Assembly (NCBI GenBank): GCA_964355175.1
Contig: CAYHBZ010000002.1
Location: forward strand, 396,537 to 460,536
Source of the DNA: an uncultured Gammaproteobacteria bacterium
GTDB lineage: Bacteria > Patescibacteriota > Patescibacteriia > Magasanikbacterales > GWA2-37-8
Reading direction: 5' to 3'
DNA length: 64,000 nucleotides
Shown here: one piece after another, positions 21,137-46,342 of the stretch
Layout: the number at the start of each line of letters is the position of its first letter
Numbering within the stretch: the stretch's first letter is position 1
Program-made: the position numbers and the translations under genes
The notes under the pieces: model-generated
Told to the model about the DNA's origin: nothing
What the model saw: only the letters and a program-made list of their open reading frames with translations
Database searches by the model: none

Positions 21137-21193
21137 AAGGCTAATTTTATGGTATGATTATGTTCGTTTCTCTTATATATTAATCTAATCTTT

Positions 21194-21358
21194 ATGTTAC
21201 TAGTTTGTCCAGAATGCAAGAACCAAATTGATTTGGTTTCCTACCCGGATCTAGAAGTGGGTCATGTGGTAGAATGTGAAATGTGTGGAATCACTTTAGA
21301 AGTGAACAATATGGACGGTGATCAGGTACAGGCTGGAATCGTAGACGAAGGTAAATAA
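21194..21358 (+). CDS. Small zinc-ribbon protein, LysW/ArgW-like (54 aa, absent from the ORF track)
   Basis: MLLVCPECKNQIDL...VVECEMCGITLEV, with two CxxC pairs and an acidic tail. A terminator follows at 21365-21400. Confidence 0.4.
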   Translation: MLLVCPECKNQIDLVSYPDLEVGHVVECEMCGITLEVNNMDGDQVQAGIVDEGK

Positions 21359-21364
21359 ACTTTT

Positions 21365-21400
21365 GGAAATCCCTCGACTTAGTCGGGGGATTTTTTTATT
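21365..21400 (+). terminator. Rho-independent terminator
   Basis: ggaaatccctcgacttagtcgggggattttttt. Confidence 0.55.
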
Positions 21401-21415
21401 TACAAACACTCTGTT

Positions 21416-21964
21416 TTATTCCGGGAATAATATTTTTTTGAATTCACCGAGTTTTTTATCCGCCTTTAGTTTGTTCAGATAAAATGATAGCCAATTGCGG
21501 CGCCAATCGCTGGTATAAAATTCCACGAATTCTTCAAAGGACATTTCTACCAATTTTATTTTTTCACCGTTGTCCAATTTTGGTTCGGATACTTTTTCAC
21601 AATCGTGGGCAATATATAGGTGCATATCCCAATCCATTTTTACCAAAGGCTGACAGCTATGGAAAAGTTTCCATTTTTTGCTGGCCAGTCCGGACTCTTC
21701 TTTTAATTCTCTTTTAGCGGCTTTGAGTGCCGGTTCATTTTTTTCACAGCGACCGCCTAGCAGTGATAATCCGCGTTTGATACCGGGCTGGGCTTCGTCG
21801 GCCATGATTATTTTATTACCTTTGATAGGAATTACTTGTACCGTATCCACTCGGCTAATCATTTCAAAAGTGGCGGTAGAGCCGTCAAACATTTTTTGCG
21901 GCCATTGGTAAATATCAAATATTTCTCCGGAAAATACCTTTTTGGCTTTTTTAGGTAACTTCAT
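21416..21964 (-). CDS. NUDIX hydrolase
   Basis: Nudix box 'GGRCEKNEPALKAAKRELKEESGL'. Confidence 0.6.
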   Translation of the reverse strand: MKLPKKAKKVFSGEIFDIYQWPQKMFDGSTATFEMISRVDTVQVIPIKGNKIIMADEAQPGIKRGLSLLGGRCEKNEPALKAAKRELKEESGLASKKWKLFHSCQPLVKMDWDMHLYIAHDCEKVSEPKLDNGEKIKLVEMSFEEFVEFYTSDWRRNWLSFYLNKLKADKKLGEFKKILFPE

Positions 21965-21969
21965 AAAAT

Positions 21970-23331: not shown

Positions 23332-23717
23332 AATTCATTTGTTGAGGCCAGTAGTTTTATTTGTTTTTTATAGATTAGTACTGGAACTAATATCACTAGC
23401 ACTGGTGTTGTCAATAAAAATATTATGTATATTATTGCTGGAAAACCTTTTAGATGTACAATGGGTAGTACAGGTAATAAAATTAAATTATACTCAAAAT
23501 TGTTAAATAACGCCTGGCCAAAAGTACATTCGTTTGATTCTTCCTTTCCCCAATCATAACAAGAGTACGTATTATTTTTATTTAAATTAGATAATTTTTG
23601 AGAGTTTTTATTTGGCCAAGAAATTATTAACGCTACTGTAAAAAATATTATTAAAAATGAGGCAAATATTTTATAAATTATAATTTCAGTTGCCGCTAAA
23701 GCCTGTTTGTTTAACAT
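23328..23717 (-). CDS. Small membrane protein, hypothetical
   Basis: Two hydrophobic helices. Overlaps its neighbours by 4 nt on each side. Confidence 0.3.
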   Translation of the reverse strand: MLNKQALAATEIIIYKIFASFLIIFFTVALIISWPNKNSQKLSNLNKNNTYSCYDWGKEESNECTFGQALFNNFEYNLILLPVLPIVHLKGFPAIIYIIFLLTTPVLVILVPVLIYKKQIKLLASTNEL

Positions 23718-24127
23718 AAAATTTTGTTTAAATCCCCATTTAAAACAGTCGGTTTCATCGCAATAATCTCTGTTTCGTAATAAGGCATTTTTGGAATTGG
23801 GTTCAAAAGATAAATTGGTTTTTTCAAAATATACGCAAAACCCATTTCTAAAAAACTATTACCGCCAATGTATCCAGGGATGTCGTGTTTTTCAATATTT
23901 AACACCAAAACTTTGTCGCATTTTTCAATTACACTCCAATGTTCGCGCATCGCGTCTTTTTCGTATTTGTGAAACAATTTTAATTTTTCTTGTTCGTCTT
24001 CACTTAGTCCCAAATATTGATTATTGAAACTAGAAGCAAACGCCTCATGTCCGGCGGCACGAAAAAAATCTTCTGCCTCTCGAGCTTTCTGTGCGTGTTG
24101 CATGCTGTGACAAATCGCTATCCTCAT
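23711..24127 (-). CDS. Nucleoside 2-deoxyribosyltransferase-like protein
   Basis: 'KCDKVLVLN...GYIGGNSFLEMGFA' pattern of this Rossmann-like family. Confidence 0.35.
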   Translation of the reverse strand: MRIAICHSMQHAQKAREAEDFFRAAGHEAFASSFNNQYLGLSEDEQEKLKLFHKYEKDAMREHWSVIEKCDKVLVLNIEKHDIPGYIGGNSFLEMGFAYILKKPIYLLNPIPKMPYYETEIIAMKPTVLNGDLNKILC

Positions 24128-24128
24128 A

Positions 24129-24830
24129 TTATTTCAACTCTTTCTTCAGGCTGGCCAAATCCGCATGCCAGCTATTACCATCAAACCACTCCAATCCAGC
24201 AAATTGCAATTTGTAAGTGTCAGTGGGGCGAGAAGCAGAGCCGAGATAAATATATTTTTTATCAGCTTCTTGCGCCAGGACTATAGCTTTGAGCATCATG
24301 CCTAGGCCTAAATTTTGGATTTTGGAATCCAAATGATAAAAAGGATAACAATAATGCAAAGTATTTTTGGTTTCCAGAGCAATACAATATCCAATAGGAT
24401 ATCCGTTGGCATGTTTATCGTCTGAATCTTTGAAAGCAATGTGTTTCAGTATCTTTATAGGAGCAAAATAATTCAGCACCCTGTTAAAATTACTTTTTTC
24501 TTTATCCGTAATCAATTCTTTTATTTTTTGAGCGGAAAAAGTTTTCTCACCAAATTTTCTGGAATAAAAATCTTTGCCAAGTTTGTGGATAGTCCAGTCG
24601 TAGTCAGGATAGGGAATAATACTAGCGCTTATTTCCACGCTCTCCACATGTTTGAGTACCCGGCGATTTTCACTATTCAGTTTAAATTTATCCAAATTAA
24701 TTCTCAAACTACGCGTCTGATACATATCACCCCTGCCAGTACGAGTAAACAAAAATCCCTCATCATAAAGAGTCTCAATATTTTTATCAGAAAAATCGTC
24801 AATGGTTTTTGTCTTCCAAGTCAGGTACAT
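24129..24830 (-). CDS. Arginyl/leucyl-tRNA--protein transferase-like (ATE/Bpt C-terminal domain-like) protein
   Basis: Weak similarity only. Start chosen at the internal Met MYLTWK. The ORF track extends to 24872, into the palindromic element. Confidence 0.3.
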   Translation of the reverse strand: MYLTWKTKTIDDFSDKNIETLYDEGFLFTRTGRGDMYQTRSLRINLDKFKLNSENRRVLKHVESVEISASIIPYPDYDWTIHKLGKDFYSRKFGEKTFSAQKIKELITDKEKSNFNRVLNYFAPIKILKHIAFKDSDDKHANGYPIGYCIALETKNTLHYCYPFYHLDSKIQNLGLGMMLKAIVLAQEADKKYIYLGSASRPTDTYKLQFAGLEWFDGNSWHADLASLKKELK

Positions 24831-24841
24831 ATTTATCAGAA

Positions 24842-25007
24842 TTATTAGACGGTATTTTTTTACATTGAACAAGCGAGGAAATAATTTGTGAGCCGTGAGG
24901 CGTGGCTAGCCCTGCTGTTTGAGGAGCCGAGCGACGAGTTCAGGGCTAGAGCCGAGTGGGTTGCAAATTATCCGAGCGGTTCACTGTAAAAAAATACCGT
25001 CTAATAA
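24842..25007. repeat. Long palindromic intergenic element, family M3, copy a
   Basis: 19 bp perfect terminal inverted repeats (ttattagacggtatttttt / aaaaaataccgtctaataa) flank a GC-richer core that is homologous to 35929-36104. Confidence 0.55.
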
Positions 25008-25028
25008 TTCGCAACTATGTAACTGTAA

Positions 25029-26141
25029 CTAGTAAAACACCGCCCAAATCCCCACAACCACCATAAAAGCATGAATAATCCAAAACCGCATCACAATCTT
25101 TTCTTCACTCCACCCCTTAAATTCAAAATGATGGTGCAACGGCGCCATTTTAAACAAGCGTTTTCCCAGCAAGCGGCGTGACATTATTTGTAAAATGACA
25201 ACCGCGGTTTCCAAATAAAAAATAAAACCAAAAAATGGAATGAATAAAGTTTTATCAATCGCGATCATATTTATCGCCAGCAATGCGCCTAATCCGAGCG
25301 ACCCCACATCGCCCATCTGAAAGCGTGCCGGTTTGACATTGAAATAAGTGTAAGCTAAAAGTGCTCCTGCCACCGTGGCATTGAGCGGTGCAAAAGCGGT
25401 GCGGCCTTCAATCCAGCTCACTACGGTAAGACCAACAAAAGTAATAATCAAAGATCCGCCAGCCAAACCATCCAGACCGTCCGCGATATTCACGGCGTTG
25501 GCCGTAAACATTACAAAGAAAATAATCAAAGGAATAATCAGCCAACTGACATCGAGGCGACCATCAAATGGTACGGCCATGGTATGCCAATGATTGTCTA
25601 ATTTAGTGTATACCCACCACGCCGCCACCGCGCCGGCGGCAAATTGTAATAATAATTTTTCATGCACCTGGACACCGCGTCCCGGATGTGAACCGAGGAT
25701 ATGAGCGAATCTTTTAAATACCGCCCATGGCAAAGTGATGATATGCCATAATCTGGTATACCAATGACGATGGACCTTGATCAGGGTAAAAGTTTGAGAA
25801 AGGGTGCGAAGACGACGCTTGGCCCCAAAAGTATTGAGCAGATCATCGGCCGCGCCGAGCAATGCGGCGATACCCATCACGCCTATTGGTACATAGGTAT
25901 ATTTACGACTCCAATTGAAAAGCATGGTGATGGCGGTGACTACTATTATTACCAGCAGCCCGCCCATTATTGGTGTGCCTACTTTTACTTGTCGGTCGCC
26001 ATAGAGAGTGAAATCATATTCAGAGCGACGGGTAATTTTGAATTTATAAAGTAATTTGGTCAGCAAGGGTGCCAACAAAAAAGAGAGGGCGCAAGCCCCG
26101 ATAAAAAACAGTAAAGATGTTTCTAAAAGACTAATAGACAT
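25029..26141 (-). CDS. mraY: Phospho-N-acetylmuramoyl-pentapeptide transferase
   Basis: 'NAVNIADGLDGLAGG' and 'MAPLHHHFE' motifs. Confidence 0.85.
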   Translation of the reverse strand: MSISLLETSLLFFIGACALSFLLAPLLTKLLYKFKITRRSEYDFTLYGDRQVKVGTPIMGGLLVIIVVTAITMLFNWSRKYTYVPIGVMGIAALLGAADDLLNTFGAKRRLRTLSQTFTLIKVHRHWYTRLWHIITLPWAVFKRFAHILGSHPGRGVQVHEKLLLQFAAGAVAAWWVYTKLDNHWHTMAVPFDGRLDVSWLIIPLIIFFVMFTANAVNIADGLDGLAGGSLIITFVGLTVVSWIEGRTAFAPLNATVAGALLAYTYFNVKPARFQMGDVGSLGLGALLAINMIAIDKTLFIPFFGFIFYLETAVVILQIMSRRLLGKRLFKMAPLHHHFEFKGWSEEKIVMRFWIIHAFMVVVGIWAVFY

Positions 26142-26190
26142 GGCTAAATATTAGCTTAAATTCAAGGAAAAATCAAGTTTTTGCGAAAAA

Positions 26191-27483
26191 CTAATCACTC
26201 CACTCCTTGGTTTGGCGCACCAATAATTTGGGAGCGTCGAGTGGTTCGGCCATCACTTCTTTGACAATTTTTTCCATGCGCATGCTCTGGGATCCTTTGA
26301 TGAGTACCACATCGCCTTGATTTAATTTTTCTTGAAGAAATTTTCCGGCCGTTTTGCTATCGGCAAAAGAGGCAATTTGATTATCATCCATTCCGGCTTC
26401 GCGCGCGGCGATAGCCGTATGTTTACTGGATTCGCCCACGGTAATCAGGAAATCTATTCCTAGTTCGGCAGTCTTTAAACCCACTTCACGATGAGTATTT
26501 TCCGTTTCTGATCCGAGTTCCAACATATCCGCCAACACCGTAATGCGTTTACCACCATCGTGGGGGGTGATTTTTGATAAAGTATAGAGCGCCGATTTTA
26601 CCGGCTCCGGACTGGAATTGTAGGTATCGTCGATGAGTAAAGTGTTTTTAATTCCATTGATAATGCACATGTGTCCAGGCAGTGGCTCTATTTTTCGAAG
26701 TGCGATAGCGGCTTCTACTACATTAATACCTAAGATATGTCCGACTGCTACCGCGGACAAAGCCGAAGGAATAAGGTGGACAGCGATTGCTCCCGGTAAA
26801 AACATCGGAACAATATTGCCGTCGTAATTTAGTTTGAAATTTAAGCCCGATGGCCAGCCGGTTTTTTCGTCGATAATAATATTGATATCAGTAGCCTGGA
26901 AAGTAGCACCATCTTTAAAACCAAAAGTGACCACTTCGGCTTTGGTGGTATTGCCATTTTGCATTACCATGTCATTGTCATAATTTAAAACCGCAAAACC
27001 ATCGCGTTGTAAATGTGAAATGATAATACGTTTTTCTTGAGCGATTTTTTTAATGGTTTTGAAAGTCTCGGTATGAGCGTGAGAAATATAAGTAAGCACA
27101 CCAATTTTACAAGGAGCAAGTTCGGTAAGGTAAGCAATATCTCCCGGTTTGTCAGCGCCCATTTCCAATACCAAAATTTCGGGATAATTTTTGTCGGTAA
27201 CGAGAAGCAGCTCAATGGCTTTTATTATCACCATTATCCAGCCGAACACTGAGCTATTTGGAGATTTTTCTACGCCAATAATTGCCAGCGGTATGCCAAT
27301 TTCGTTGTTGTAATTTTTAAAACTTTTGCGAACATTAAATTTGCTTTTCAAAACTAAATAGATTGCTTCCTTGGATGAAGATTTTCCAATCGAGCCGGTA
27401 ATGCCAATCACATCTGGATGATATTTCTGGATAATTTTTTTGGAGAGTGATCGTAGTATCAAATTTAAGAAATTTCTAAACAT
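26191..27483 (-). CDS. murF: UDP-MurNAc-tripeptide--D-Ala-D-Ala ligase
   Basis: Mur ligase P-loop 'GITGSIGKSS' and 'DDTYNSSPEP' (MurF DDSYNANP-like). Lies between ftsI and mraY. Confidence 0.75.
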   Translation of the reverse strand: MFRNFLNLILRSLSKKIIQKYHPDVIGITGSIGKSSSKEAIYLVLKSKFNVRKSFKNYNNEIGIPLAIIGVEKSPNSSVFGWIMVIIKAIELLLVTDKNYPEILVLEMGADKPGDIAYLTELAPCKIGVLTYISHAHTETFKTIKKIAQEKRIIISHLQRDGFAVLNYDNDMVMQNGNTTKAEVVTFGFKDGATFQATDINIIIDEKTGWPSGLNFKLNYDGNIVPMFLPGAIAVHLIPSALSAVAVGHILGINVVEAAIALRKIEPLPGHMCIINGIKNTLLIDDTYNSSPEPVKSALYTLSKITPHDGGKRITVLADMLELGSETENTHREVGLKTAELGIDFLITVGESSKHTAIAAREAGMDDNQIASFADSKTAGKFLQEKLNQGDVVLIKGSQSMRMEKIVKEVMAEPLDAPKLLVRQTKEWSD

Positions 27484-27499
27484 ATTCTATAGGGTTATT

Positions 27500-29227
27500 T
27501 TATTTATCATTTGGTACCGCGTAGTATTGCAGAGCAAAAGTAAGTAGATCACGAAATATTGGTAGGGTAGTCTGCTCCGCCCACTGACGCTGGGGCTCTT
27601 CATATTTTACCACCAAAACAAATTGTGGGTTAGAGGCGGGTGCAAAACCAGCAAAGGTGTGGTTGGTGCGATCCACACTATATTTGCCCGCTTCGGCAAT
27701 TTGAGCGGTACCGGTTTTGCCGGCCACATAATAGCCAGGGATCTTGGCAGCGCGGTAATGGTTTTCCACCACTGATACTAGCATACCACTAACTAACTTG
27801 GCAGTGCGAGCCGAGATTACGGATTCGGAAGTCAAAGGGGAAGTGATTTCTTTTTTCCCATCGGGATAGTGCACTTCCGAAATGATATATGGTTTTGGCA
27901 TGAGGCCTTGGTTCGCTATAGCAGAATAAGCGGAAGCGAGTTGCAATGGAGTAGCGGTGAGACCCTGGCCAAATGATCCTACGGCGGCATAGATCTGACC
28001 TTTTTTGTCCAGCGAAGAAATATCCGCACCAGATTCAGGAGATAGTTCAATGCCGGTTTTTTGGCCAAAGCCAAATTTTTTAGCGTAATCAGACAAGCGT
28101 TCGTGACCAAGTTTATCGGCCACAAACATCATCCCGGTATTTACCGAGTTTTCCAAGACCTGAGTCATATTTATAGTGCCGTAACATTTATTTTGAGCGT
28201 TGCGAATTGGGAAGCCGCCATACACGCGCACGCACGGATCGGTAAAAGTGGTGTTGGGTGAAATCAGGCCGAGGTCTATGCCGGCCGACATAGTGATAGG
28301 TTTAAAAACCGATCCTGGTTCATAAGGAGTAAAAATAGCGGTGTTGTTGTACTGTCGAATATCTTTTACTTGTGAATAATCGTTCGGATTAAAATCCGGC
28401 AGACTGCACATCGCTAGGATAGCGCCGGTCTTTGGATTCATCATTACCAGTGACGCGCTTTTGGCTTGGTATTCTTCCAAACCTTTTTGTAATAGCAAAC
28501 AAGCTTTGTATTCTAGGCTACGGTCTATGGTTAGCACTATGTCCGCGCCGTCTTGAGCGTTCACTTGAGAATGGTCTGACATGGCTACCAAACTACCAAA
28601 AGCGCCGCGTTCACCAATGGCAAAACCTTTGCGTCCGGATAAAATTTTATTCCAATAACCTTCGGTGCCGTAGCTGCCGATTTGTTCGGTGCCGCTGTCG
28701 TCTAGTCGGCAAAAGCCCAAAATTGGACCGGCTAAATTTTGTTCGGGATAATAACGGTATTCCTGTTCGTTGGCATAAATTCCCGGTAATTTTTCCGTTT
28801 TTAATTTTTCGTAAGTATCACTATCAATTTTTTTGGCAACCGGTTCGTAGAGGTCGTTACTTTTGGATAATTTTTTATTTAAAATTTCTCGATCGGTTTC
28901 TGGCAAGTTTAATATTTTTATTAATTTGTCCACGGTCATGGCTATCTCTTCCGGTTTTATATTTTTGGGTATAGCATAAATTAGATAATATTGGCGATTG
29001 ATAGCCGCCGGGAAAAGAGTTTTGGTGCGAGTATCTTGGAAAAATATTTCTCCGCGTTTGGGGTGAAGTTGTTTGTAAATTTCATGGCTGTTTAGTGCCA
29101 GAGTGTGATAATAATTATATTGTACTATTTGCAACAAAAATAATTTGATAATTATTATCAAAGCTACCGCTAAAAAGAAAACAGCGATAAAACGTAAACG
29201 GTTATCAGTTTTTTCTTTGTGCGTCAT
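27500..29227 (-). CDS. ftsI: Penicillin-binding protein 2/FtsI transpeptidase
   Basis: N-terminal TM helix. SxxK 'SVFKP', SxN and 'KTGTAQ' motifs. Confidence 0.85.
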   Translation of the reverse strand: MTHKEKTDNRLRFIAVFFLAVALIIIIKLFLLQIVQYNYYHTLALNSHEIYKQLHPKRGEIFFQDTRTKTLFPAAINRQYYLIYAIPKNIKPEEIAMTVDKLIKILNLPETDREILNKKLSKSNDLYEPVAKKIDSDTYEKLKTEKLPGIYANEQEYRYYPEQNLAGPILGFCRLDDSGTEQIGSYGTEGYWNKILSGRKGFAIGERGAFGSLVAMSDHSQVNAQDGADIVLTIDRSLEYKACLLLQKGLEEYQAKSASLVMMNPKTGAILAMCSLPDFNPNDYSQVKDIRQYNNTAIFTPYEPGSVFKPITMSAGIDLGLISPNTTFTDPCVRVYGGFPIRNAQNKCYGTINMTQVLENSVNTGMMFVADKLGHERLSDYAKKFGFGQKTGIELSPESGADISSLDKKGQIYAAVGSFGQGLTATPLQLASAYSAIANQGLMPKPYIISEVHYPDGKKEITSPLTSESVISARTAKLVSGMLVSVVENHYRAAKIPGYYVAGKTGTAQIAEAGKYSVDRTNHTFAGFAPASNPQFVLVVKYEEPQRQWAEQTTLPIFRDLLTFALQYYAVPNDK

Positions 29228-36104: not shown

Positions 36105-38324
36105 GATAATAGCACGAAGAATTTTAGATTCAATTTCCGGCGGAGTCAAATGCGCCAATTCATAAACCTCATCCACATTCCCAGACTTCAAATAAGTATC
36201 AATACAAATAGAGCGCTTCTCATAATTCTTCGGCAACATGAAAGGATACAAAAATCCTTTCCAGCCATTGTGCAAAGCCACCACCAATTCACGCTCATGA
36301 TCCGGCAAAATTTGTTGAGCCACGCGCTCGTTGGTATGGCGTAGTTCTTCAAATAACTCCGGAGAAGTGACGCAAATAATTTTTACATCATAATCTTTTT
36401 CCAAATTTGGCAGAATCTCCAGAGTGTTAAACAGCATATGCGCGCCACAAATCGCCAATACAGTTTTTTGTTGGCCGTTTTCTTTGAAAGGTTTGTAAAC
36501 ATAGGCGCCCCAAGTGGCCGCGATAGCTGGCGGCACATCACCGCCGCGTTTGATTACCGGAGTATCCGGACGCATGGCCGAGAGCGCGATTGGTTCACCT
36601 TTTTCTAGAGCATAAAATAACATTTCTACCATTTCATTGGCATCCATTGGTTTGTATACTTTTATTCCTGGAATAGCATTATACAAACTCATCCAGTACA
36701 AACCCTGATGAGTAGGGCCGTCTTCACCAGTTTCCGGGCCGTCATGGGCCGCGTACATTATGAAGAAGCCTTTGTGAGCGGGGAAGAGATGGTTGTTAAT
36801 TACCGCCAAGCGCACACAGTTGGCTATCATGGTAGTGAACACAGCATAAGTACCAAATACGGAAATAGGATGAAATCCGCCCGGCAAAATATCCTGGGTC
36901 AAAGTCGCGCTCATCATCGCCATGTTTTGCTCGGCAATACCAAAGCGAATACCGCGACCCAAAGGATTTTTTGGCGTAATTAAGCCATAGACATTTTCCG
37001 CTGCCGCCGTGAGTACGGATCCGGAAAGATCGCCCGCACCGGCATAAAAAAAGGCGGTTTGAGTCATGAGCCATTTATACCACGCGCCCGCGGCTTTGCG
37101 AGTCGCTACTTTTGACCCCTCTTCAAAAATTAATTCCGGTGGCAAAGTTTCCGGGCGGCGCACGGAGGTGGGATTTACCAAGGCGCGTCCGTTTAGAGCC
37201 AGAGCCATTTGGCGTACCAATTCAGATTCCGGTTTTATTTTTTTAGCGGCAATATCCAATTTTTCCAAAACATATTTTTCATCTTCCGGTGAAATATTTT
37301 TTAGGATCACTTCAATATCTTTTATCGCTTCACCTTTTATTCCCGGAATATCAAAGCCGAGATTTTTCATGACTTCGATGTATTCTTCATGTTTTATCGG
37401 AGCACCGTGACTGGCCGCGGTATTTTCTTTACTGCCATATAATTTACCTTTTAGCGTGTGGCAAATTATTACCGTTGGTCTGTTATTATTAAAAATTTTT
37501 GGTGCGAGGCGATAGGCGTACATTACTTCAAGTACATTATGTCCATCTACTTCGATCATATTCCAGCCCATGCCACGCCAATGATCAATATAAGTAGAAT
37601 TCATCGCTTCTTCTATCGGGCCATCAATACCAAAATGGTTGTAATCCAAACTGACGATCATATTATCCGTACCGGTAGCGGCCAAGACATTGCGGGCTTC
37701 ATAAGTCATACCTTCTTCGCTTTCGGCGTCACCCATCATTACATATACTTTAGTTGGCAAGCCACAAGATTTGTGGACTATTGCCATACCGCCGGCCCCA
37801 GAAAAGCCGTGACCAGATGGGCCGGTAGAGGTGTCGGCTAAGGGATAATGGCCCTCAGCGTGGCCTTGTGGGCCATCAGTGTGGCGAAAGCGTAAAAGAT
37901 GTTCTGGGAAAACCGGCTGAACCACCGCTTCCGAAAATTGTCGGCCACTGCGGCGTAGAATTTCATAGATTAGAGAATTCATCGCGAAAAGACCGGGCGT
38001 ACAATGTCCCGCGCTCCAAATAATACGATCGCGTCCGGAATTTTTAGGATTGATTGGGTCAAAAGCTAAATTTTCTCCCAGCACCAAAGCCAATAGTTGC
38101 TCTACTTTGCCGCTACTGCCACCGGGATGTCCGCTTTGACCAGCTTCGACCGCCACAAAAATAAAAGCACGCAAAATCTGAGCCAAATGTTGCAGTCGCT
38201 TCACATCTACTCCGGGAAGATCCGTTAAATCTGTGCCGGATAAATTTATGTAGTTTCCGTTTACCCTGTTTTTATCTTTGGAAAATTTTTTCCAATCTTT
38301 TTCTTCAAACAAATTCAAACTCAT
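36099..38324 (-). CDS. tkt: Transketolase
   Basis: 'GHxG' ThDP region and 'EDGPTHQG' motif. 741 aa including an N-terminal extension. Confidence 0.85.
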   Translation of the reverse strand: MSLNLFEEKDWKKFSKDKNRVNGNYINLSGTDLTDLPGVDVKRLQHLAQILRAFIFVAVEAGQSGHPGGSSGKVEQLLALVLGENLAFDPINPKNSGRDRIIWSAGHCTPGLFAMNSLIYEILRRSGRQFSEAVVQPVFPEHLLRFRHTDGPQGHAEGHYPLADTSTGPSGHGFSGAGGMAIVHKSCGLPTKVYVMMGDAESEEGMTYEARNVLAATGTDNMIVSLDYNHFGIDGPIEEAMNSTYIDHWRGMGWNMIEVDGHNVLEVMYAYRLAPKIFNNNRPTVIICHTLKGKLYGSKENTAASHGAPIKHEEYIEVMKNLGFDIPGIKGEAIKDIEVILKNISPEDEKYVLEKLDIAAKKIKPESELVRQMALALNGRALVNPTSVRRPETLPPELIFEEGSKVATRKAAGAWYKWLMTQTAFFYAGAGDLSGSVLTAAAENVYGLITPKNPLGRGIRFGIAEQNMAMMSATLTQDILPGGFHPISVFGTYAVFTTMIANCVRLAVINNHLFPAHKGFFIMYAAHDGPETGEDGPTHQGLYWMSLYNAIPGIKVYKPMDANEMVEMLFYALEKGEPIALSAMRPDTPVIKRGGDVPPAIAATWGAYVYKPFKENGQQKTVLAICGAHMLFNTLEILPNLEKDYDVKIICVTSPELFEELRHTNERVAQQILPDHERELVVALHNGWKGFLYPFMLPKNYEKRSICIDTYLKSGNVDEVYELAHLTPPEIESKILRAIIK

Positions 38325-38680
38325 ACGGTAATTGTATACTCTTTGCCTTCACGCACTTTGCGTTTATCTTTTTTATCTTTTTCGCGTTGCATTACTTTGT
38401 GTTTTTTTAGCTCACTTTCCAGATAATCGCGTACTTTGTCTATCGCTTTGTAAACATCTTTTTCATTTTTGGAAGCAAACAGGTCGTTGCCCGGCACTTC
38501 CAGTTTACATTCGCATATAAAAATTTTTCCTTTCAAGTGGTGGTTGGTTTCTAAACCCACTCGTACTTGAGCGCGCATTATTTTATCGTAAAATTTATCC
38601 AAACCATTAATTTTCTTTTCTACGTATTCTTGAATAGAGGAGGTGAGCTCGATTCCTTTGCCGGTAATTTGGATTTGCAT
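38321..38680 (-). CDS. hpf: Ribosome hibernation promoting factor
   Basis: 'MQIQITGKGIELT..' RaiA/HPF fold signature. Confidence 0.8.
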   Translation of the reverse strand: MQIQITGKGIELTSSIQEYVEKKINGLDKFYDKIMRAQVRVGLETNHHLKGKIFICECKLEVPGNDLFASKNEKDVYKAIDKVRDYLESELKKHKVMQREKDKKDKRKVREGKEYTITV

Positions 38681-38708
38681 AGCATTAGGGCTAGTGAATT
38701 AAAACTTT

Positions 38709-39650
38709 TTATTGGACTATTTCTACTTCCGGTTCGATATTTAATTTAAACTTATTATACGCTTTTTCTTTCATTATTTCAACAATTTTTAGCACATCTT
38801 CCTGTTTGGCGTTGTTGAAGTTGATCACGAAGTTTCCATGTTCGTCGGATACTTTGGCGCCGCCGATGGTGAGGCCTTTGAGATCCAGTTGTTCCATTAC
38901 CCAGCCCACCGGTATCATACCGCGTTCACGGAATAGCTCTGGTAATTCTTCTTTATTTCCCGGCCATTTGGATATTTGGATATTTTTGAAGAAACTTCCG
39001 GCTGATGGGGTATGTGGGTAGCGTCCGGATCTTTGCTTCATATAGGTAGTGGCGCGTTGCATTATTTCTTTTTTGTCGCCAGGCTTCAGCTTGAACCAAG
39101 CGCGTAGTACAATGTCACCATTAAATTTGAAATGACTTTCGCGGTAATCAAATCCACACTCGGAATTTTGTAATTCAATCACTTCGCCGTCACGCCAGAT
39201 CTGTACTTTTTCCATACAGGTGGCAATATTTTTGCCCATGGCTCCGGCATTGCCGCGCACCGCTCCGCCTACCGTACCTGGCACGCCCACGCCCCATTCC
39301 AGTCCTTCTAGGCTATGAGCCAGAGATAAATTTATTAGAGTACCAAAGCCTACCCCAGCATCGGACATGATGGTGGTGTCGTCTGCCATCTCTACTTTTT
39401 TGGTTTGAATTTTTACGGTGACGCCCTCGATATCTCGGTCCGGCATGAGTAAATTACTACCGCCTCCCAAGATAAAAAAGTCTACGCCATTATTTTTGAG
39501 ATAATTCAGCAAGCCAACCAATTTTTCGGTATCGGTCACGGTGACCAACCGCTGGGCCATTTCTCCCACCGCAAAAGTAGTCATTTTTTTGAAAGATACG
39601 TTGGTCTTTACGTCACCAAAATTTTGTAATTCTTTGTACAGGTCATCCAT
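38709..39650 (-). CDS. murB: UDP-N-acetylenolpyruvoylglucosamine reductase
   Basis: FAD-binding 'GGGSNLL' motif and MurB C-terminal domain. Confidence 0.85.
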   Translation of the reverse strand: MDDLYKELQNFGDVKTNVSFKKMTTFAVGEMAQRLVTVTDTEKLVGLLNYLKNNGVDFFILGGGSNLLMPDRDIEGVTVKIQTKKVEMADDTTIMSDAGVGFGTLINLSLAHSLEGLEWGVGVPGTVGGAVRGNAGAMGKNIATCMEKVQIWRDGEVIELQNSECGFDYRESHFKFNGDIVLRAWFKLKPGDKKEIMQRATTYMKQRSGRYPHTPSAGSFFKNIQISKWPGNKEELPELFRERGMIPVGWVMEQLDLKGLTIGGAKVSDEHGNFVINFNNAKQEDVLKIVEIMKEKAYNKFKLNIEPEVEIVQ

Positions 39651-39659
39651 AGTATATAA

Positions 39660-39688
39660 TTGCCAAAAGGTGGTTATTTTAGTATAAT
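39660..39688 (+). promoter_or_regulatory. sigma70 promoter TTGCCA-17-TATAAT. The implied TSS is about 7 nt before the ATG, making the mRNA leaderless
   Basis: TATAAT at 39683-39688 and ATG at 39696, with no SD sequence between them. Confidence 0.45.
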
Positions 39689-39695
39689 CTCCTAT

Positions 39696-40901
39696 ATGCC
39701 ATTTTCTCTAAAACAGCCAATAATTTATGTAGCGCGGGATCTAGAGCGAACTCTGGGATTACCTCTGAGTACCCCTGGCAACTATATTATCTCAAATTTT
39801 ACTTCCTTTGCCAATAGTTTGGCCAGAGGGCATAAAAATGTTTTATTAATCAAAAATAAGGCGCTTTTGGATACCAGGGATCTGCTCACACATCCAAAGG
39901 CCGAGAAGTTTATCGCGGGTTTAAAAAATCCCGGGATTTTGGTTTTTAAAAATACGCCACTATTGGAAAAAATCTGTGTTCAAAAAGGATACCGACTGCT
40001 AAATCCTAGTGCTGAGCTGGCCAATACCGTGGAAGAAAAAGTCACTCAGGTAAAGTGGCTGGGAAATTTGAGAAAATTTTTGCCACCGCATGAAATAAAA
40101 CCATCCAAAGAAATAAAATGGAAAGGTAAGAAATTTATTTTACAATTTAACCATGCCCATACCGGCAACGGCACTTTGCTCATTACCAATGAAAATCAGC
40201 TCAAAGAAGTGCAAAAAAATTTTCCCGACCGACCGGTGCGCGTGACCAAATATATCGATGGTATTATGCTTACCAATAATAATGTGGTGGCCGATAAAAA
40301 AATATTGTGTGGAAACATCAATGTGCAACTCACCGGCATTCTTCCTTTTACTATTCGGCCGTTTGCCACTGTCGGCAATGATTGGGCCTATCCTCACAAA
40401 ATTTTAAATAACGCGCAAAAAAAGAGCTATGAAAAAATAGCCAAAGCCGTGGGGGAGAGATTGTATCAAAATAATTGGCGCGGGCTATTTGGGATTGATG
40501 TTATTTTTGAAAAAAGCACCGGCAAATTATTTTTAATTGAAATCAATGCGCGTCAACCGGCCAGCACCAGCTTTGAATCTATTTTGCAGATGAGAAAAAA
40601 TAAAATAGGGCTGACCACTTTTCAAGCGCATCTTTTGGCTGTGACCGGTATGAAAATCGGCGGCAAACTTACGACCATAAAAAATGGCGCCCAGATCACT
40701 CAAAAAGTTTTGGATAAAAAAATTGATAATAAAAAATTGAATAAGGAAGTGGCACGATTGCAGAAAGCAGGTTTTGGTGTATTTAAGTATGACAATACGG
40801 AAGTTGAATCGGATTTTGTGCGTATGCAATCGAACCAGGGGATTTTGGAAAGTGAAAATGTTTTAAATAGCGTCGGTAAGAAGCTAATATTGAATATATA
40901 A
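39696..40901 (+). CDS. ATP-grasp fold enzyme (peptide/amide ligase-like)
   Basis: 'VRVTKYIDG', 'LFGIDVIFEKSTGKLFLIEINARQ' and other ATP-grasp signature regions. Start at ATG 39696 rather than the TTG at 39660. Confidence 0.6.
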   Translation: MPFSLKQPIIYVARDLERTLGLPLSTPGNYIISNFTSFANSLARGHKNVLLIKNKALLDTRDLLTHPKAEKFIAGLKNPGILVFKNTPLLEKICVQKGYRLLNPSAELANTVEEKVTQVKWLGNLRKFLPPHEIKPSKEIKWKGKKFILQFNHAHTGNGTLLITNENQLKEVQKNFPDRPVRVTKYIDGIMLTNNNVVADKKILCGNINVQLTGILPFTIRPFATVGNDWAYPHKILNNAQKKSYEKIAKAVGERLYQNNWRGLFGIDVIFEKSTGKLFLIEINARQPASTSFESILQMRKNKIGLTTFQAHLLAVTGMKIGGKLTTIKNGAQITQKVLDKKIDNKKLNKEVARLQKAGFGVFKYDNTEVESDFVRMQSNQGILESENVLNSVGKKLILNI

Positions 40902-40920
40902 GAATGATACAGAATTTATT

Positions 40921-41718
40921 ATGTTATCTACAAAAGCTCAAAAAGTTTTAAATGATTATTTCAATCTTCCCTTTGAAGGTTTGTCTGGCGTGCGTTGTCC
41001 TTATTTTAATAATGCCCGCCTCAAACAGCGCGCGCAATTGCGGGTGTTGGTAGGCAAAGGATCCCCGGCCGAGATTGTGGAGGAGGCCAAAATTATTTCC
41101 GTGCAATACCATGCGGGATTATTTGATAAAGCCGGACATTGCTGTCTGCATAATGAGCACACCGGTGAAGAAATTACTGCGGAGCAATTGCGTAAATTTT
41201 TAATCGATAATAATCTGGGGATTGAATGTTCCGGTTTTATCACTCAGATTCTGCGCGCGCACTTTTTGGAAACCCGGGATGTGGATATAGCGCGTAAGTT
41301 TTTTATAGTTTCGCCGCGACATGTTTTCCGCTATTTTATTTCTCTTTTGCGCCCGGTAGAAAATATCGGTGTAAAACATTACAGCGATGATCGCAATACC
41401 AAGAAAATTTCTTGGAACGAGGCTCAAACCGGCGATGTGGTGGTAATGCTCGAAGCCGGTGCCAAAAATAACTTCAATCATATTTTGCTGATTACCGAAA
41501 AAACTGCTGATGTTATCAAATACGTCCATGCCCGCACCTGGGATAGTGAAGGCAGATATGGTCATGGCGTATCTCTAGGAGAAATAAAAATTTCCCAACC
41601 CGTCGGTTCGCTACTGGATCAGCGCTGGGTAGAGCAAGGATTGGAAGGAGAAAAAAATGAAACTTTTGTGGAAGCCAAGCAGGCAAAAATTTTGGAAGTA
41701 AGGAGAATAAGATACTAA
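40921..41718 (+). CDS. Hypothetical protein whose C-terminal half is NlpC/P60-like (papain-fold Cys...His) and whose N-terminus is Cys/His-rich
   Basis: 'ECSGF' followed by 'GDVVVMLEAG' and 'NHILLITE', the order seen in NlpC/P60 amidases. N-terminal 'RCPYF...HCCLHNEH' may bind metal. Confidence 0.35.
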   Translation: MLSTKAQKVLNDYFNLPFEGLSGVRCPYFNNARLKQRAQLRVLVGKGSPAEIVEEAKIISVQYHAGLFDKAGHCCLHNEHTGEEITAEQLRKFLIDNNLGIECSGFITQILRAHFLETRDVDIARKFFIVSPRHVFRYFISLLRPVENIGVKHYSDDRNTKKISWNEAQTGDVVVMLEAGAKNNFNHILLITEKTADVIKYVHARTWDSEGRYGHGVSLGEIKISQPVGSLLDQRWVEQGLEGEKNETFVEAKQAKILEVRRIRY

Positions 41719-41719
41719 T

Positions 41720-42946
41720 ATGGATAAGAGAAGATTTGTAGATATTAATGCCATCGGCATTGATCCCAACAAAGATGTAAGTAAAAAATTTGTAAATGTC
41801 GGTCCTTTAGAAATATTTTTTGGTAAAAAAGAACAAAAAATTACTCAAGCCGATGTTGCGGCCTATGCTCGAGAAATTTTGTCTGTTTGTAAAAGATTTG
41901 TCGATAGTAATCAGTCCGATTTAGGTATTTCTTTTTTGATTCATTCTCTATCTACCGATAAATTATTTGCCGATCTTGGATTTACCGCCACCTCACTGTT
42001 TTATTATCCCCGAAAGGAAGATTTTGAAGAGAATGCCGATGTCGCTTTAAACAGATTGCGCGCCGGGCTAATGGAAGAAATTAAAAAACAGCTTAATTCT
42101 AGTGAAGAATTTGCCAATTTGAATCAAGATGATATTTTCATGAAAAATTTTAGTGCCAGTGATTTTGGTGTAGAAAATGAGGTTGGAGAAATTACCAATA
42201 TTCCAGGGAAGCAATTTTATTTTAAAAGATTGAAGTTAAAAAATTTGGATAGAGAAGATTTGGAAAAACTTAATAGAAGCCGTTTAGAATTTTTGACCAA
42301 GGCTCAGGAAGATAAGAAAAAAGGTACATTGCCTCCATCTATTTTGCTTCCTCAGTCTGCCAGTCCCGAGTCCACTGAATTACTTAGTGTGAAGCGTGAA
42401 ATGTTTGTCTTGAATGATTTAATTCAAGTAATAAAAAGTAATAAAGGAATTGACCACAAAAAAGTGTTAGAGGATTTATCAGTGGCTGTCCAAATGATTT
42501 TGGATGCCGCGCGCGGCTGTCTTTATATTCAGGAGCAGGGTTTTGTTTTGATGGATATCGATCGATATAATATTGGTTATGATATGCAAGACAAACACGG
42601 GATTATGTTTGATTGGGATTGTATGGCCAAAATTGGCGATGAAATCGGGGATGATAGATTGCATAAAGCGCCTTTGTATAGGGATGATAAATTTAAGTAT
42701 GGTAAATATGCCCATGCTCAGGAAATGGTTTTTCAATTAGGTGTGGCCCTCAAAGAAGTCGCCAACCTGGGTAAAAATTATTTATCGGATAAAGTTTTTG
42801 GAGAGCTTTACGCTCTATCTTTAATGATGGTAAAATTTGATGGGAGAGAGGGGCAAACAGATGTCACACCTTTATCCTCCAAGATCGGTCAGCCCGATTT
42901 GAAGCGGGTAATAGAGGTGCTAGAGGAAAATCATAAGGAAATATAA
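41720..42946 (+). CDS. Hypothetical protein with a divergent protein-kinase-like C-terminal domain
   Basis: 'VLMDIDRYNIGYD...IMFDWDCM' resembles the HxDxxxxN catalytic loop plus a DFG-like motif. Confidence 0.3.
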   Translation: MDKRRFVDINAIGIDPNKDVSKKFVNVGPLEIFFGKKEQKITQADVAAYAREILSVCKRFVDSNQSDLGISFLIHSLSTDKLFADLGFTATSLFYYPRKEDFEENADVALNRLRAGLMEEIKKQLNSSEEFANLNQDDIFMKNFSASDFGVENEVGEITNIPGKQFYFKRLKLKNLDREDLEKLNRSRLEFLTKAQEDKKKGTLPPSILLPQSASPESTELLSVKREMFVLNDLIQVIKSNKGIDHKKVLEDLSVAVQMILDAARGCLYIQEQGFVLMDIDRYNIGYDMQDKHGIMFDWDCMAKIGDEIGDDRLHKAPLYRDDKFKYGKYAHAQEMVFQLGVALKEVANLGKNYLSDKVFGELYALSLMMVKFDGREGQTDVTPLSSKIGQPDLKRVIEVLEENHKEI

Positions 42947-42950
42947 TTTT

Positions 42951-43454
42951 ATGTCATTTTATTTTACTCTATTGGCCTGTGTAGTGTTGTTAGGGTTTAT
43001 TTTTTCACCATTGTTTTTGGGTGTGCCATTTTTGCCGACCCATCGTCGTCAAGCTCGCAAGATGATGGAGTTGGCAGAAATAAAGCCCGGTATGAAAGTG
43101 ATCGATTTGGGATCAGGGGCTGGCCGGCTGTTGTTTATGGCAGCGAATCAAGGGGCGACGGCTATTGGCTATGAACTCAATCCATTTTTGGTTATTTGGA
43201 CAAAACTAATGATTTTATTAAAAGGCAAAAGGGGACAAATAAAAGTTTTTTATAAATCAATTTATGACGCGGATATCGCTGATGCCGATGCTATCATGAT
43301 GTTTTTGTATCCACCTCACATGAAAAAATTGGAAAGTAAGATATTTAACGAGGCCAAGCCGGAAGTGAAGATACTATCATATGTTTTTCAATTCCACAAT
43401 TATACACCGATAGCCAATGAGCAGGGGATTTTTATTTATAAAAAAACACTATAA
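42951..43454 (+). CDS. Class I SAM-dependent methyltransferase with an N-terminal membrane anchor
   Basis: 'VIDLGSGAGRL' motif I. Confidence 0.6.
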   Translation: MSFYFTLLACVVLLGFIFSPLFLGVPFLPTHRRQARKMMELAEIKPGMKVIDLGSGAGRLLFMAANQGATAIGYELNPFLVIWTKLMILLKGKRGQIKVFYKSIYDADIADADAIMMFLYPPHMKKLESKIFNEAKPEVKILSYVFQFHNYTPIANEQGIFIYKKTL

Positions 43455-43541: not shown

Positions 43542-43616
43542 GGCCCGTTCGTCTATCGGCTAGGACATGGCCTTCTCAAGGCTAGAAGAGGGGTTCGACT
43601 CCCCTACGGGCTACCA
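43542..43616 (+). tRNA. tRNA-Glu(CTC)
   Basis: Hand-folded cloverleaf with acceptor GGCCCGT/ACGGGCT, anticodon loop TTCTCAA, T-arm AGGGG-TTCGACT-CCCCT and an encoded CCA. A promoter-like TTGACC-17-TAGTAT lies upstream. Confidence 0.65.
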
Positions 43617-43665
43617 CAAAAACACTCTCCTTAAATAGGAGAGTGTTTTTGTTTTGAATTTTTTA
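43617..43665 (+). terminator. Rho-independent terminator after the tRNA
   Basis: aaaaacactctcc-ttaaata-ggagagtgttttt, a perfect 13 bp stem. Confidence 0.65.
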
Positions 43666-44682: not shown

Positions 44683-45738
44683 ATGAAAAAAAGTAAAAAA
44701 ACAGCAGTGTTCTTTCTAGTAGCCCTTTCGTTCGCGCTTGGGCTTGTCGGTCCACTGGCCGCATTGGCTGGTCCAACCAAGATTGAACTTTTGTCGGCCG
44801 ATAATTTTGCCATCCTTGCCGGTTCCACCATTACCAACATTGGATCGAGCATCGTTGGCGGAGATCTTGGCTTGAGCCCGGGTACCGCGGTCACCGGGTT
44901 TCCACCGGGAATTGTGAACGGAACCCAGCATGTGGCTAATGCCGTTGCCGCTCAGGCGCAGTTAGATGTCACTACCGCTTATACGACAGCGCTTGGATTT
45001 GCGTCTATTTCCACTATACCAACCGAACTTGGCGGAACGACTAAAACCCCTGGTGTTTATGATTCCGCGGCTGGGACTTTTGGAATCACTGGTACACTAA
45101 CGCTCGACGGTGAGGGTGATGCGAACGCGGTGTTTATTTTTAAAACCGCTACCACTTTTATCATGGCCGCAGGGAGTAAGGTGGTTCTTGTGAACGGCGC
45201 GCAAGCGTGTAACATCGTTTGGCAAGTAGGTAGTTCAGCGACGCTTGGAACAAATTCTACGTTACAAGGCAGTATTCTAGCGTTTACTTCCGCCACGCTT
45301 AATACTGGCGCACATGTCCAAGGGCGAGTATTAGCTCGCAATGGCGCCGTTACTTTAGATTCTAGTACTGTTACCAAAGCTACTTGTGCTGTGCCTGTTG
45401 TGGAACCAATTGTGGTATCAGCGCCTCAGCCCACATCGACTCCTAATTTTTCGACATCCACTCCTACATCCGTGATAATACCATCGTTTTCAACTTCAAC
45501 ATCAATGCCAGCGCCCAGCACAACACCATTGGTATTCTCAGCCACTGTGACAGCTTCGCCTACACTGAATGTTGCTCCGCTTGTGTCTACATTTATTCCT
45601 GATTTTCCCAATACCGGTCTTTCTCCACAAGAGACAAGTATGTGGTGGGGTAGTCGATTGTTTGTCGCTAGCGCGCTTTTGATTTTGACTTTATTGTTGG
45701 TAATCTTAAAAAAACGTTCATCATCTTTGGGTGTTTAA
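44683..45738 (+). CDS. Secreted DUF3494 (ice-binding-like) domain protein with a C-terminal sortase sorting signal (FPNTG, hydrophobic helix, KKRSS)
   Basis: Signal peptide followed by 'FAILAGSTITNIGSSIVGGDLGLSPG', typical of DUF3494. C-terminal 'FPNTG' plus TM helix and basic tail. Confidence 0.65.
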   Translation: MKKSKKTAVFFLVALSFALGLVGPLAALAGPTKIELLSADNFAILAGSTITNIGSSIVGGDLGLSPGTAVTGFPPGIVNGTQHVANAVAAQAQLDVTTAYTTALGFASISTIPTELGGTTKTPGVYDSAAGTFGITGTLTLDGEGDANAVFIFKTATTFIMAAGSKVVLVNGAQACNIVWQVGSSATLGTNSTLQGSILAFTSATLNTGAHVQGRVLARNGAVTLDSSTVTKATCAVPVVEPIVVSAPQPTSTPNFSTSTPTSVIIPSFSTSTSMPAPSTTPLVFSATVTASPTLNVAPLVSTFIPDFPNTGLSPQETSMWWGSRLFVASALLILTLLLVILKKRSSSLGV

Positions 45739-46342
45739 TATGTCTAGTCGTGTAAAGATGAGTCTCGTTGCCTTAGTTGTTTTTTTCTTCATTCTCGGCC
45801 TGTCTGTCTCTGAACTCTATACGAAGGTACCTTTGTCCGCAAATACGCTTGCAACCTCGACGCAGTTGATAGTCCCATCAGAGCAAACGCTTCTAGGCTT
45901 GCCGATACATCTCACGATCCCACGGATCCATGTCGATGCCTCCCTTGAATATGTTGGCCTCACAGCGACCGGGGCAGTGGATGTGCCAACAGTGCCAGCG
46001 AATCCAGCCTGGTACTCGCTGGGGCCGCGTCCGGGGCAAACTGGCAGTGCGGTGATTGTCGGGCATTTCGGCTGGAAAAAAGGGATGCCAGCGGTTTTTG
46101 ATGATTTGTCTACTCTGCGTAAGGGCGATAAGTTGTATGTCAAAAATGAACACGGAGCGACTACTACTTTTATAGTACGCGAGTTGCGAAGCTATAGCGC
46201 GCATGACAGTGCTGTGGAGGTATTTAGCTCTAGTGATGGGAAAGCGCATCTGAATTTGATCACCTGTGAAGGAACTTGGAATAAAATTGAGGAGAGTTAT
46301 TCAAAGCGACTGGTGGTATTTGCTGATTTAGAAGATAGATAA
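45731..46342 (+). CDS. Sortase (transpeptidase)
   Basis: N-terminal TM helix, catalytic His region and 'LNLITCEG' (TLxTC motif). Confidence 0.75.
   Translation: MFNMSSRVKMSLVALVVFFFILGLSVSELYTKVPLSANTLATSTQLIVPSEQTLLGLPIHLTIPRIHVDASLEYVGLTATGAVDVPTVPANPAWYSLGPRPGQTGSAVIVGHFGWKKGMPAVFDDLSTLRKGDKLYVKNEHGATTTFIVRELRSYSAHDSAVEVFSSSDGKAHLNLITCEGTWNKIEESYSKRLVVFADLEDR

Follow-up and report, generated by a model that had tools for sequence, protein, structure and literature searches.

A conserved ATP-grasp ligase and NlpC/P60-like amidase gene pair beside cell-wall genes in Candidatus Magasanikbacteria

Results

Organisation of the locus

The present analysis concerns a 64,000-nucleotide stretch of DNA (positions 396,537 to 460,536 of contig CAYHBZ010000002.1, assembly GCA_964355175.1; hereafter the window) and, within it, four open reading frames (ORFs) named P1 to P4, which lie tightly packed on the + strand between positions 39696 and 43454 and are separated by gaps of 19, 1 and 4 nucleotides (nt). 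They are predicted to encode an ATP-grasp ligase, an NlpC/P60-like amidase, a kinase-fold protein and a methyltransferase anchored by a transmembrane (TM) helix, respectively. Homologues of P1, P2, P3 and P4 were found in public data, and the four ORFs are therefore genes and not chance reading frames. The description of four co-oriented, packed genes given by a sequence-only reading of this DNA was confirmed, as all of the ORFs are present. The public gene calls and the alignment of homologues place the start of P1 at the ATG at 39696, while the TTG at 39660, at which its longest ORF opens, is part of the −35 hexamer of the promoter and not the start codon. The strong hairpin of the intrinsic-terminator type that follows the tRNA gene behind P4 likely marks the end of the transcription unit. 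The positions of all features are collected in Table 1.

Table 1. Features of the locus and of other parts of the window
Feature	Position	Strand	Length	Remarks
Sigma-70-type promoter, TTGCCA-17-TATAAT	39660–39688	+		11/12 match
P1, predicted ATP-grasp ligase	39696–40901	+	401 aa	Longest ORF opens at 39660
P2, predicted NlpC/P60-like amidase	40921–41718	+	265 aa	
P3, predicted kinase-fold protein	41720–42946	+	408 aa	
P4, predicted TM-anchored methyltransferase	42951–43454	+	167 aa	
tRNA-Glu(CUC)	43542–43616	+		Just after P4
Terminator-like hairpin	43616–43652	+		16-bp stem, then T run; after tRNA-Glu(CUC)
murB	38709–39650	−		Pfam FAD_binding_4 and MurB_C; divergent, 45 nt from the P1 start
Displaced block, mraY to murC-like gene	21970–26141	−		Contains two small ORFs; located by tblastn, Pfam, NCBIfam and synteny
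mraY of the displaced block	25029–26141	−		
Fem/ATE-like gene of the displaced block	24129–24872	−		
murC-like gene of the displaced block	21970–23331	−		
dcw-like block	20246–29227	−		Penicillin-binding protein (PBP) transpeptidase, Mur ligase, mraY, arginyltransferase/Fem-like gene, two ORFs (129 and 138 aa), murC-like gene, NUDIX, PALP
Stand-alone NUDIX gene	21416–21964			After the murC-like gene
LysW-like zinc-ribbon gene	21194–21355	+		Strand opposite to the dcw-like block
GC island	8000–12100			~60% GC; genome ~41% GC
Membrane protein of the GC island	9014–10192	+	392 aa	Ala-rich coiled coil
Secreted protein of the GC island	10642–12063	+	473 aa	Cys-rich repeats of CxDxNxCTxDxC type
Secreted protein with Ice_binding-like domain	44683–45738			Thr/Ser/Pro-rich tail
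Sortase gene	45731–46342			Directly after the preceding gene

Conservation of the gene linkage

The GTDB species were scanned with the P2 family, which gave 161 relatives; 80 loci were kept, and the neighbouring genes were mapped by tblastn. The window belongs to a genome of Candidatus Magasanikbacteria (Patescibacteria). Nearly all of the named homologues are labelled Candidatus Magasanikbacteria, and the P2 relatives retrieved from GTDB almost exclusively bear titles of Magasanikbacteria or Patescibacteria, barring evidently wrong titles.

In all 75 informative loci, P1 is the gene directly upstream of P2; the distance is 150 nt or less in 69 of them, and the arrangement holds down to a P1 identity of ~42%. 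Of the 69 loci informative for murB, 61 have this gene in divergent orientation at no more than 400 nt from P1. The mraY gene, which in this lineage matches TIGR00445 above the cut-off, occurs downstream of P2 in 56 of the 68 loci informative for it, and in 40 of these the spacing is 150 nt or less. Behind mraY the typical order is an arginyltransferase/Fem-like gene, a murC/Mpl-like ligase gene, a LysW-like zinc-ribbon gene and a gene for a PALP enzyme. P4 comes after P2 in just 12 of the 68 loci informative on this point, which belong to a single sub-clade, and P3 was absent from all 80 GTDB loci.

The window has its mraY, Fem-like, murC-like, LysW-like and PALP genes in an inverted block at 20.2–26.1 kb, beside Mur ligase and PBP genes. 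P1 and P2 are still paired and adjacent to murB there, although the mraY block has moved away. Taken together, the synteny across the loci and the displaced block in the window indicate that the ancestral and prevalent array is P1-P2-mraY-Fem-like-murC, headed by a predicted leaderless promoter. In the sub-clade of the window, a rearrangement took the cell-wall genes away from P2 and placed P4 and tRNA-Glu(CUC) next to it.

The gene of P3 is located between P2 and P4 in the genome of the window and in four other protein clusters. In the trees based on P1 and on P2, P3-bearing genomes are interspersed with P3-less ones, which fits the presence of P3 in the ancestor of the sub-clade and its repeated loss thereafter. 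The next-closest relative of P3 (E 1.6e-56) lies outside this clade and in an unrelated gene context.

The conserved core is a two-gene module of P1 and P2 that is specific to Candidatus Magasanikbacteria; the locus of the window is a predicted composite operon, and P3 and P4 are later, dispensable accessory genes. The sequence-only reading had suggested a single modification pathway for the four genes and had pointed to the conservation of their linkage across Patescibacteria as a check. The linkage stood for P1 and P2 and failed for P4 and P3, and the conservation gives no support to a single four-gene pathway, as in most species it is peptidoglycan genes, not a kinase or a methyltransferase gene, that follow P2.

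Among the contigs with a clear murB-P1-P2 arrangement of the Magasanikbacteria type, many bear the title 'uncultured Gammaproteobacteria bacterium' and one bears 'Candidatus Udaeobacter sp.'; apparently, these titles are wrong or the contigs were mis-binned.

Promoter and start of P1

Within the 5.8 kb scanned, the sequence TTGCCA (39660–39665), followed after 17 nt by TATAAT (39683–39688), is the top match to a promoter (11/12), and only 7 nt separate the end of the −10 hexamer from the ATG of P1. To compare this geometry among relatives, the P1 start was located in ~90 related loci, which yielded 77 distinct upstream regions, and the P2 starts (n = 83) served as a control. A −10 hexamer (at least 5/6) ending 5–10 nt before the ATG was present in 46 of the 77 P1 upstream regions and in 7 of the 83 control regions. 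A TTGnnn −35 element at a spacing of 16–18 nt was found as well in 34 of those 46 regions and in none of the 83 controls. The typical form of these 34 regions is TTGCCAAAA...TTTTAGTATAAT/TATACT-N8-ATG, and the placement of the promoter at the ATG is kept down to ~45–50% P1 identity.

Since the geometry is preserved at P1 across the relatives and not at the P2 control, the promoter as well as its placement at the start codon are under selection. The promoter abutting the P1 start that had been read from the sequence is thus the best match of the region and has a recurrent geometry. The distance between the −10 hexamer and the ATG implies that the mRNA of P1 is leaderless, and the comparison of related loci provides evidence of leaderless transcription among Patescibacteria.

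The ATP-grasp ligase P1

The AlphaFold2 model of P1, built with 35 homologues, reached a predicted local distance difference test score (pLDDT) of 93 and a predicted template modelling score (pTM) of 0.90, and it shows a three-domain ATP-grasp fold. In the Foldseek search with this model, PurK, biotin carboxylases and PurT came first (E 1e-18, ~400 columns); Ddl/VanA reached only ~16, RimK/LysX at ~15, and tubulin tyrosine ligase (TTL) and graspetide ligases at 11–14. Residues K85, K115 and the catalytic E282-x-N284-x-R286, with the Mg-ATP-binding E-x-N motif, as well as the flexible HTGxGT loop (155–160) are invariant in the P1 family, based on 12–35 homologues.

Among the NCBIfam models, P1 matched the 'biotin carboxylase' PRK06524 (E 2e-16, 59 bits, cut-off 684) and purK (20.3 bits, cut-off 318), and weakly an archaeal pseudomurein Ddl-like ATP-grasp family (E 8e-4), while many P1 homologues carry PF02655. 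The searches against PDB chains with the single sequence and with the family profile gave chance-level matches only, and no close characterised relative of P1 emerged from the profile, PDB-sequence and fold searches. Based on the modelled fold and the conserved residues, P1 is predicted to belong to the PurK/biotin-carboxylase/L-amino-acid-ligase structural class and to act as a carboxylate-amine ligase or as a related one.

Three narrower assignments were rejected. P1 has neither a Ddl profile match nor Ddl as its closest fold; its scores for PurK and biotin carboxylase stay below the cut-offs, and no purE or BCCP partner lies nearby; and the graspetide, RimK and TTL types are not its closest structural class.

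In 11 of 75 loci (e.g., L001:211-1863 and L006:5513-7186), the C-terminus of P1 has a NUDIX domain fused to it or next to it. The top NCBIfam matches of this domain are generic Nudix boxes of the NAD diphosphatase type, and its association with P1 would suit a substrate that is joined to a nucleoside diphosphate. In the window, the stand-alone NUDIX gene behind the murC-like gene was considered as an orthologue of the P1-fused domain and rejected, as only the Nudix box matches (33–39% over 54–76 residues).

The NlpC/P60-like amidase P2

The matches of P2 to Pfam are below threshold for both NLPC_P60 (16.6 bits, cut-off 23) and Amidase_6 (17.6 bits, cut-off 23.2); sub-threshold matches of the same kind occur in 14 of 40 (NLPC_P60) and 9 of 40 (Amidase_6) members of the P2 family. 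These two nearest families contain peptidoglycan peptide amidases (PMC10318531). In the alignment of 40 sequences, C103 (in ECSGF) and H187 (in NHILLIT) are invariant, and H203 (in YVHAR) is kept in at least 90%. The hhalign comparison of P2 with MepS of E. coli gave a probability of 84% with the Cys, His and His residues aligned, and P2 has the Cys at the N-terminus of a helix, the His and the second His in the order and at the spacing canonical for NlpC/P60 enzymes. Searches of PDB chains with the single sequence and with the family profile returned only chance-level matches.

No signal peptide was recognised when the sequence of P2 was read by eye, and the protein is therefore placed in the cytoplasm; it is predicted to be a cytoplasmic NlpC/P60-like Cys-His-His amidase. 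It also has a conserved N-terminal domain of ~95 aa. A zinc site in this domain (C26, C74, C75 and H77) was considered and dropped, as the residues are replaced in several members of the family.

The accessory proteins P3 and P4

Searches of Pfam, NCBIfam and PDB sequences with P3 gave no match above chance. Its close relatives amount to five protein clusters only, and an exhaustive hidden Markov model search of 1.84 billion representatives returned 89 relatives at E ≤ 1e-3. Some of these relatives pass the Pfam Pkinase model (PF00069); one of them, P0255, which matches the P3 profile at 4e-13, scores 40.3 bits with a cut-off of 31.7. Across 23 diverse members, only the columns of D279, N284, D298 and G341 are invariant. 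D279 and N284 stand in LMDIDRYN, which resembles HRDxxxxN, D298 in the DFG-like FDWD, and G341 corresponds to the Gly of αF, while K169, in a β3-like position, is kept as Lys by most members and replaced by Arg in ~4 of 23. Most relatives keep a PPE (APE-like) motif that is lost in P3.

The AlphaFold2 model of P3 has a pLDDT of 60, with a good C-terminal half and an N-terminal half below 50. In the Foldseek search with this low-confidence model, the top matches were all protein kinases (E ~5e-4, ~200 columns), and neither a Gly-rich loop nor the αC Glu was identified in the N-lobe, which is modelled at a pLDDT below 50. Based on its catalytic residues and the modelled fold of the C-lobe, P3 appears to be a very divergent protein-kinase-fold protein. 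The family is small, consists mostly of proteins of 350–440 aa and has no Pfam model of its own, and the locus exposes it as a poorly described group with ~89 representatives among the 1.84 billion proteins.

P4 matched the PDB entries 5bxy, 5fa8 and 5jwj at E 1e-14 to 3e-13, and its alignment with aKMT runs from VPFLPT (residue 25) through DLGSGAG, that is, over both the VP(F/Y)(L/V)PT segment preceding the methyltransferase domain and motif I for S-adenosylmethionine (SAM) that are expected of aKMT sequences. The NCBIfam model for archaeal protein-lysine methyltransferases was matched at 4e-12 and 46.4 bits, under the equivalog cut-off of 200. A TM helix at approximately residues 3–25 was read from the sequence, and the positive residues behind it predict a cytoplasmic methyltransferase domain. 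P4 is accordingly listed here as a predicted membrane-anchored seven-β-strand lysine methyltransferase of the aKMT/FAM173-like type, and bacterial proteins of this type are poorly described. The tRNA-Glu(CUC) gene directly follows P4 in 11 of the 13 P4-bearing loci that were checked, and the two apparently moved jointly.

The protein classes proposed by the sequence-only reading were borne out for all four genes: an ATP-grasp ligase by the fold and invariant catalytic residues of P1, an NlpC/P60-like Cys-His protein by the alignment of the Cys in ECSGF and of the downstream His, a kinase-like D/N/D motif by the invariance of D279, N284 and D298 in P3, and a TM-anchored SAM methyltransferase by the helix of P4 and its aKMT matches.

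Other features of the window

Besides the genes of the displaced block, the dcw-like block of the window includes the PBP transpeptidase, Mur ligase, NUDIX and PALP genes (Table 1), and the LysW-like zinc-ribbon gene is read in the other direction. The Fem/ATE-like gene, which is found between mraY and murC throughout the lineage, suggests a tRNA-dependent addition of a side chain to the wall precursor. The 'murC' of the lineage (L003:8712-10109 and its counterpart in the window) scores 223 bits with the MurC model and 214 bits with the model of the Mpl tripeptide ligase, under both cut-offs, and the substrate of this murC-like ligase may be other than plain L-alanine. The gene of the hibernation factor HPF (Ribosomal_S30AE) is located immediately downstream of murB on the − strand in nearly all of the loci (window 38321–39650).

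A GC island with two ORFs (Table 1) stands out in the window, and the region may be mis-called or of foreign origin; the public gene call there is instead a 389-aa ORF on the opposite strand. Smaller GC bumps occur at 18–20 kb and at 56–58 kb. Behind the transcription unit of P1–P4, the secreted protein with the Ice_binding-like domain and the sortase encoded directly after it look like a substrate and its sortase.

Discussion

Proposed function of the P1–P2 pair

The reading that we favour, and to which we give an even chance, is that the P1–P2 pair attaches and removes, or edits, an amino acid or a peptide on the peptide of a cytoplasmic peptidoglycan precursor. It is proposed because the promoter ancestrally, and in most species to this day, heads a P1-P2-mraY-(Fem/ATE-like)-murC-like array. 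Moreover, a role on the precursor peptide is the most economical account of the strict pairing of the two genes, their adjacency to murB, the spacing to mraY and murC, the family affinity of P2, the NUDIX domains and the precedent of the Asl ligases described below. P1 would activate a carboxylate as an acyl phosphate and ligate an amino acid or a peptide to its target, which would be the peptide part of a cytoplasmic precursor resembling UDP-MurNAc-peptide. P2 would hydrolyse the same or a neighbouring amide bond and thus serve in editing, recycling or control. Both would be translated from one leaderless mRNA, transcribed from a promoter that lies back to back with murB, and P3 and P4 would probably be co-transcribed passengers that modify proteins and stand outside the chemistry of P1 and P2.

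Several points weigh against this reading. The PDB sequence and profile searches found no characterised homologue of P1 or P2, and amino-acid ligases are not the only fold neighbours of P1, as carboxylases and formyltransferases (PurK, biotin carboxylase and PurT) are among them too. To our knowledge, no role in precursor synthesis has been established for a cytoplasmic NlpC/P60 enzyme. The functionally unrelated genes of HPF and of a transketolase are conserved neighbours as well; this lineage tends to preserve its gene order, and synteny alone is weak evidence of a shared function.

The superfamilies of all four proteins include protein-modifying enzymes and the conserved neighbour HPF is ribosome-associated, which would agree with P1 and P2 as a reversible system for tagging proteins or peptides that is unrelated to the wall, comparable to TTL and vasohibin or to RimK, with P3 and P4 as further protein modifiers. 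The synteny in the lineage may only mirror common descent. We consider such a tagging system unlikely. It is improbable that all four proteins serve one pathway in which a small molecule or a peptide is ligated, trimmed, phosphorylated and methylated, for instance one resembling those of ribosomally synthesised peptides with post-translational modifications (RiPPs). The RiPP/graspetide form of this explanation was rejected, as graspetide ligases are structurally distant, no precursor gene is present and the conserved partners are cell-wall genes.

Two further explanations were considered. P1 might be a non-orthologous replacement of Ddl, or an alternative to it, that makes the C-terminal dipeptide or a variant, in which case P2 would act like VanX or VanY and destroy the competing dipeptide or terminus. 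The neighbourhood of murB, murC and mraY is a frequent site of ddl, as in the dcw cluster of E. coli. A tblastn search with DdlB of E. coli found no homologue in the window and in the ~90 related loci, which are segments of 10–20 kb and not whole genomes, and no Ddl occurs among the Pfam-annotated calls over 2–64 kb of the window. The weak match of P1 to the archaeal pseudomurein family points in the same direction, and even so we see only a slim chance for this explanation. The pair might also be an amidotransferase in which P2, as a glutaminase, feeds ammonia to the acyl phosphate formed by P1, e.g., for the amidation of D-Glu or of the diamino acid of the stem, similarly to CarA/CarB or GatD/MurT. 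Carbamoyl-phosphate synthetase and carboxylases, which work with small nucleophiles, are among the close structural relatives of P1, and P1 is strictly paired with a Cys-His hydrolase. NlpC/P60 enzymes cleave γ-glutamyl amide bonds, which is chemically near to glutaminase activity; however, we know of no glutaminase partner of the NlpC/P60 type, and we regard an amidotransferase as very unlikely.

Returning to the precursor-peptide role of P1 and P2, we tentatively put forward a more specific version, which is possible and well short of probable. Magasanikbacteria would make a non-canonical precursor; P1, as a lineage-specific ligase unrelated to Ddl and the Mur ligases, would carry out a ligation on the stem peptide or a side chain and possibly replace Ddl, and P2, as a dedicated cytoplasmic enzyme, would edit or reverse this step, both being co-transcribed with mraY and murC from the leaderless promoter.

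The synthesis of peptidoglycan precursors ranks with the most conserved and most thoroughly studied pathways of bacteria and is a major antibiotic target, and a non-canonical ligation or editing step, if true, would give a nearly universal pathway, as it is regarded, a new enzymatic route. That a whole class of the candidate phyla radiation (CPR) keeps a ligase/amidase pair at the head of an mraY-murC operon suggests that its wall synthesis involves a step of tailoring, editing or replacement. Magasanikbacteria are ultra-small and probably host-dependent, and the implications are undramatic unless the biochemistry proves unusual. Literature searches on the cell wall of Magasanikbacteria returned nothing relevant, and no description of the P1–P2 pair, its conservation in a single CPR class or its position before mraY and murC was found in the searchable literature.

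Comparison with known systems

Pairs of a ligase and an amidase, as well as ATP-grasp enzymes that tailor the cell wall, are of known kinds. The sequence-only reading had found no described system that matches the locus, with which our searches agree; the cyanophycin-like and glutathionylspermidine-like systems that it named are analogies only, since no profile match links P1–P4 to either of them. Among the four proteins of the window, GSP_synth, CHAP and cyanophycin synthetase gave no Pfam or NCBIfam match at E ≤ 1. Likewise, the PADLOC defence models gave no match for P1–P3 and only generic methyltransferase matches for P4.

P3 shares with eukaryotic-like kinases the D and N of the catalytic loop, the DFG-like D, the G of αF and, in most members of its family, the β3-like K, together with the match of the C-lobe; unlike them, P3 itself has no Pfam match, its N-lobe is unrecognisable in the low-confidence model and the APE motif is lost. 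P4 is alike in sequence to aKMT of Sulfolobus and is compared also with the mitochondrial lysine methyltransferases FAM173A and FAM173B (ANT-KMT and ATPSc-KMT); it differs from all of these in being bacterial (CPR). In mitochondrial FAM173B a TM helix is followed by the methyltransferase domain, as in P4 (PMC9006661).

The likeness of P1 to PurK (N5-CAIR synthetase) and biotin carboxylase exists at the level of the fold only. The PurK/biotin-carboxylase-like ligases BL00235, PGM1, PylC, BesA and LdmS belong to the same ATP-grasp class, with an identity to P1 of 9–14%, no profile match to the solved members and other gene contexts. P2 resembles MepS/Spr and Amidase_6/Tae3 in the spacing of Cys, His and His and in the context of the motifs (DCSGF..., HVGIY... 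and xxHA), but differs from the NlpC/P60 endopeptidases in the lack of a signal peptide, in the extra N-terminal domain of ~95 aa and in an insertion of ~45 aa after the Cys helix.

As a pair, P1 and P2 recall glutathionylspermidine (Gsp) synthetase/amidase and VanA/VanX, in which an ATP-dependent amide ligase is coupled to a hydrolase of the same class of bond. The Gsp hydrolase is a CHAP domain of the papain superfamily (PMC10318531). P1 and P2 showed no homology to either system in the Pfam and NCBIfam searches. In contrast to P1 and P2, Gsp synthetase/amidase is a fusion protein and not linked to the cell wall, and VanX is a zinc dipeptidase. The D-Asp ligase attaches D-Asp, a side-chain amino acid, to UDP-MurNAc-pentapeptide, a cytoplasmic nucleotide precursor (PMC4155827). 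This ligase of enterococci and lactococci (Aslfm/AslA), to which P1 may be likened in its enzyme class, is an ATP-grasp carboxylate-amine ligase that is encoded together with wall-precursor functions and acts via an acyl phosphate (PMC4155827); Asl is paired with a racemase, whereas the partner of P1 is an NlpC/P60 amidase.

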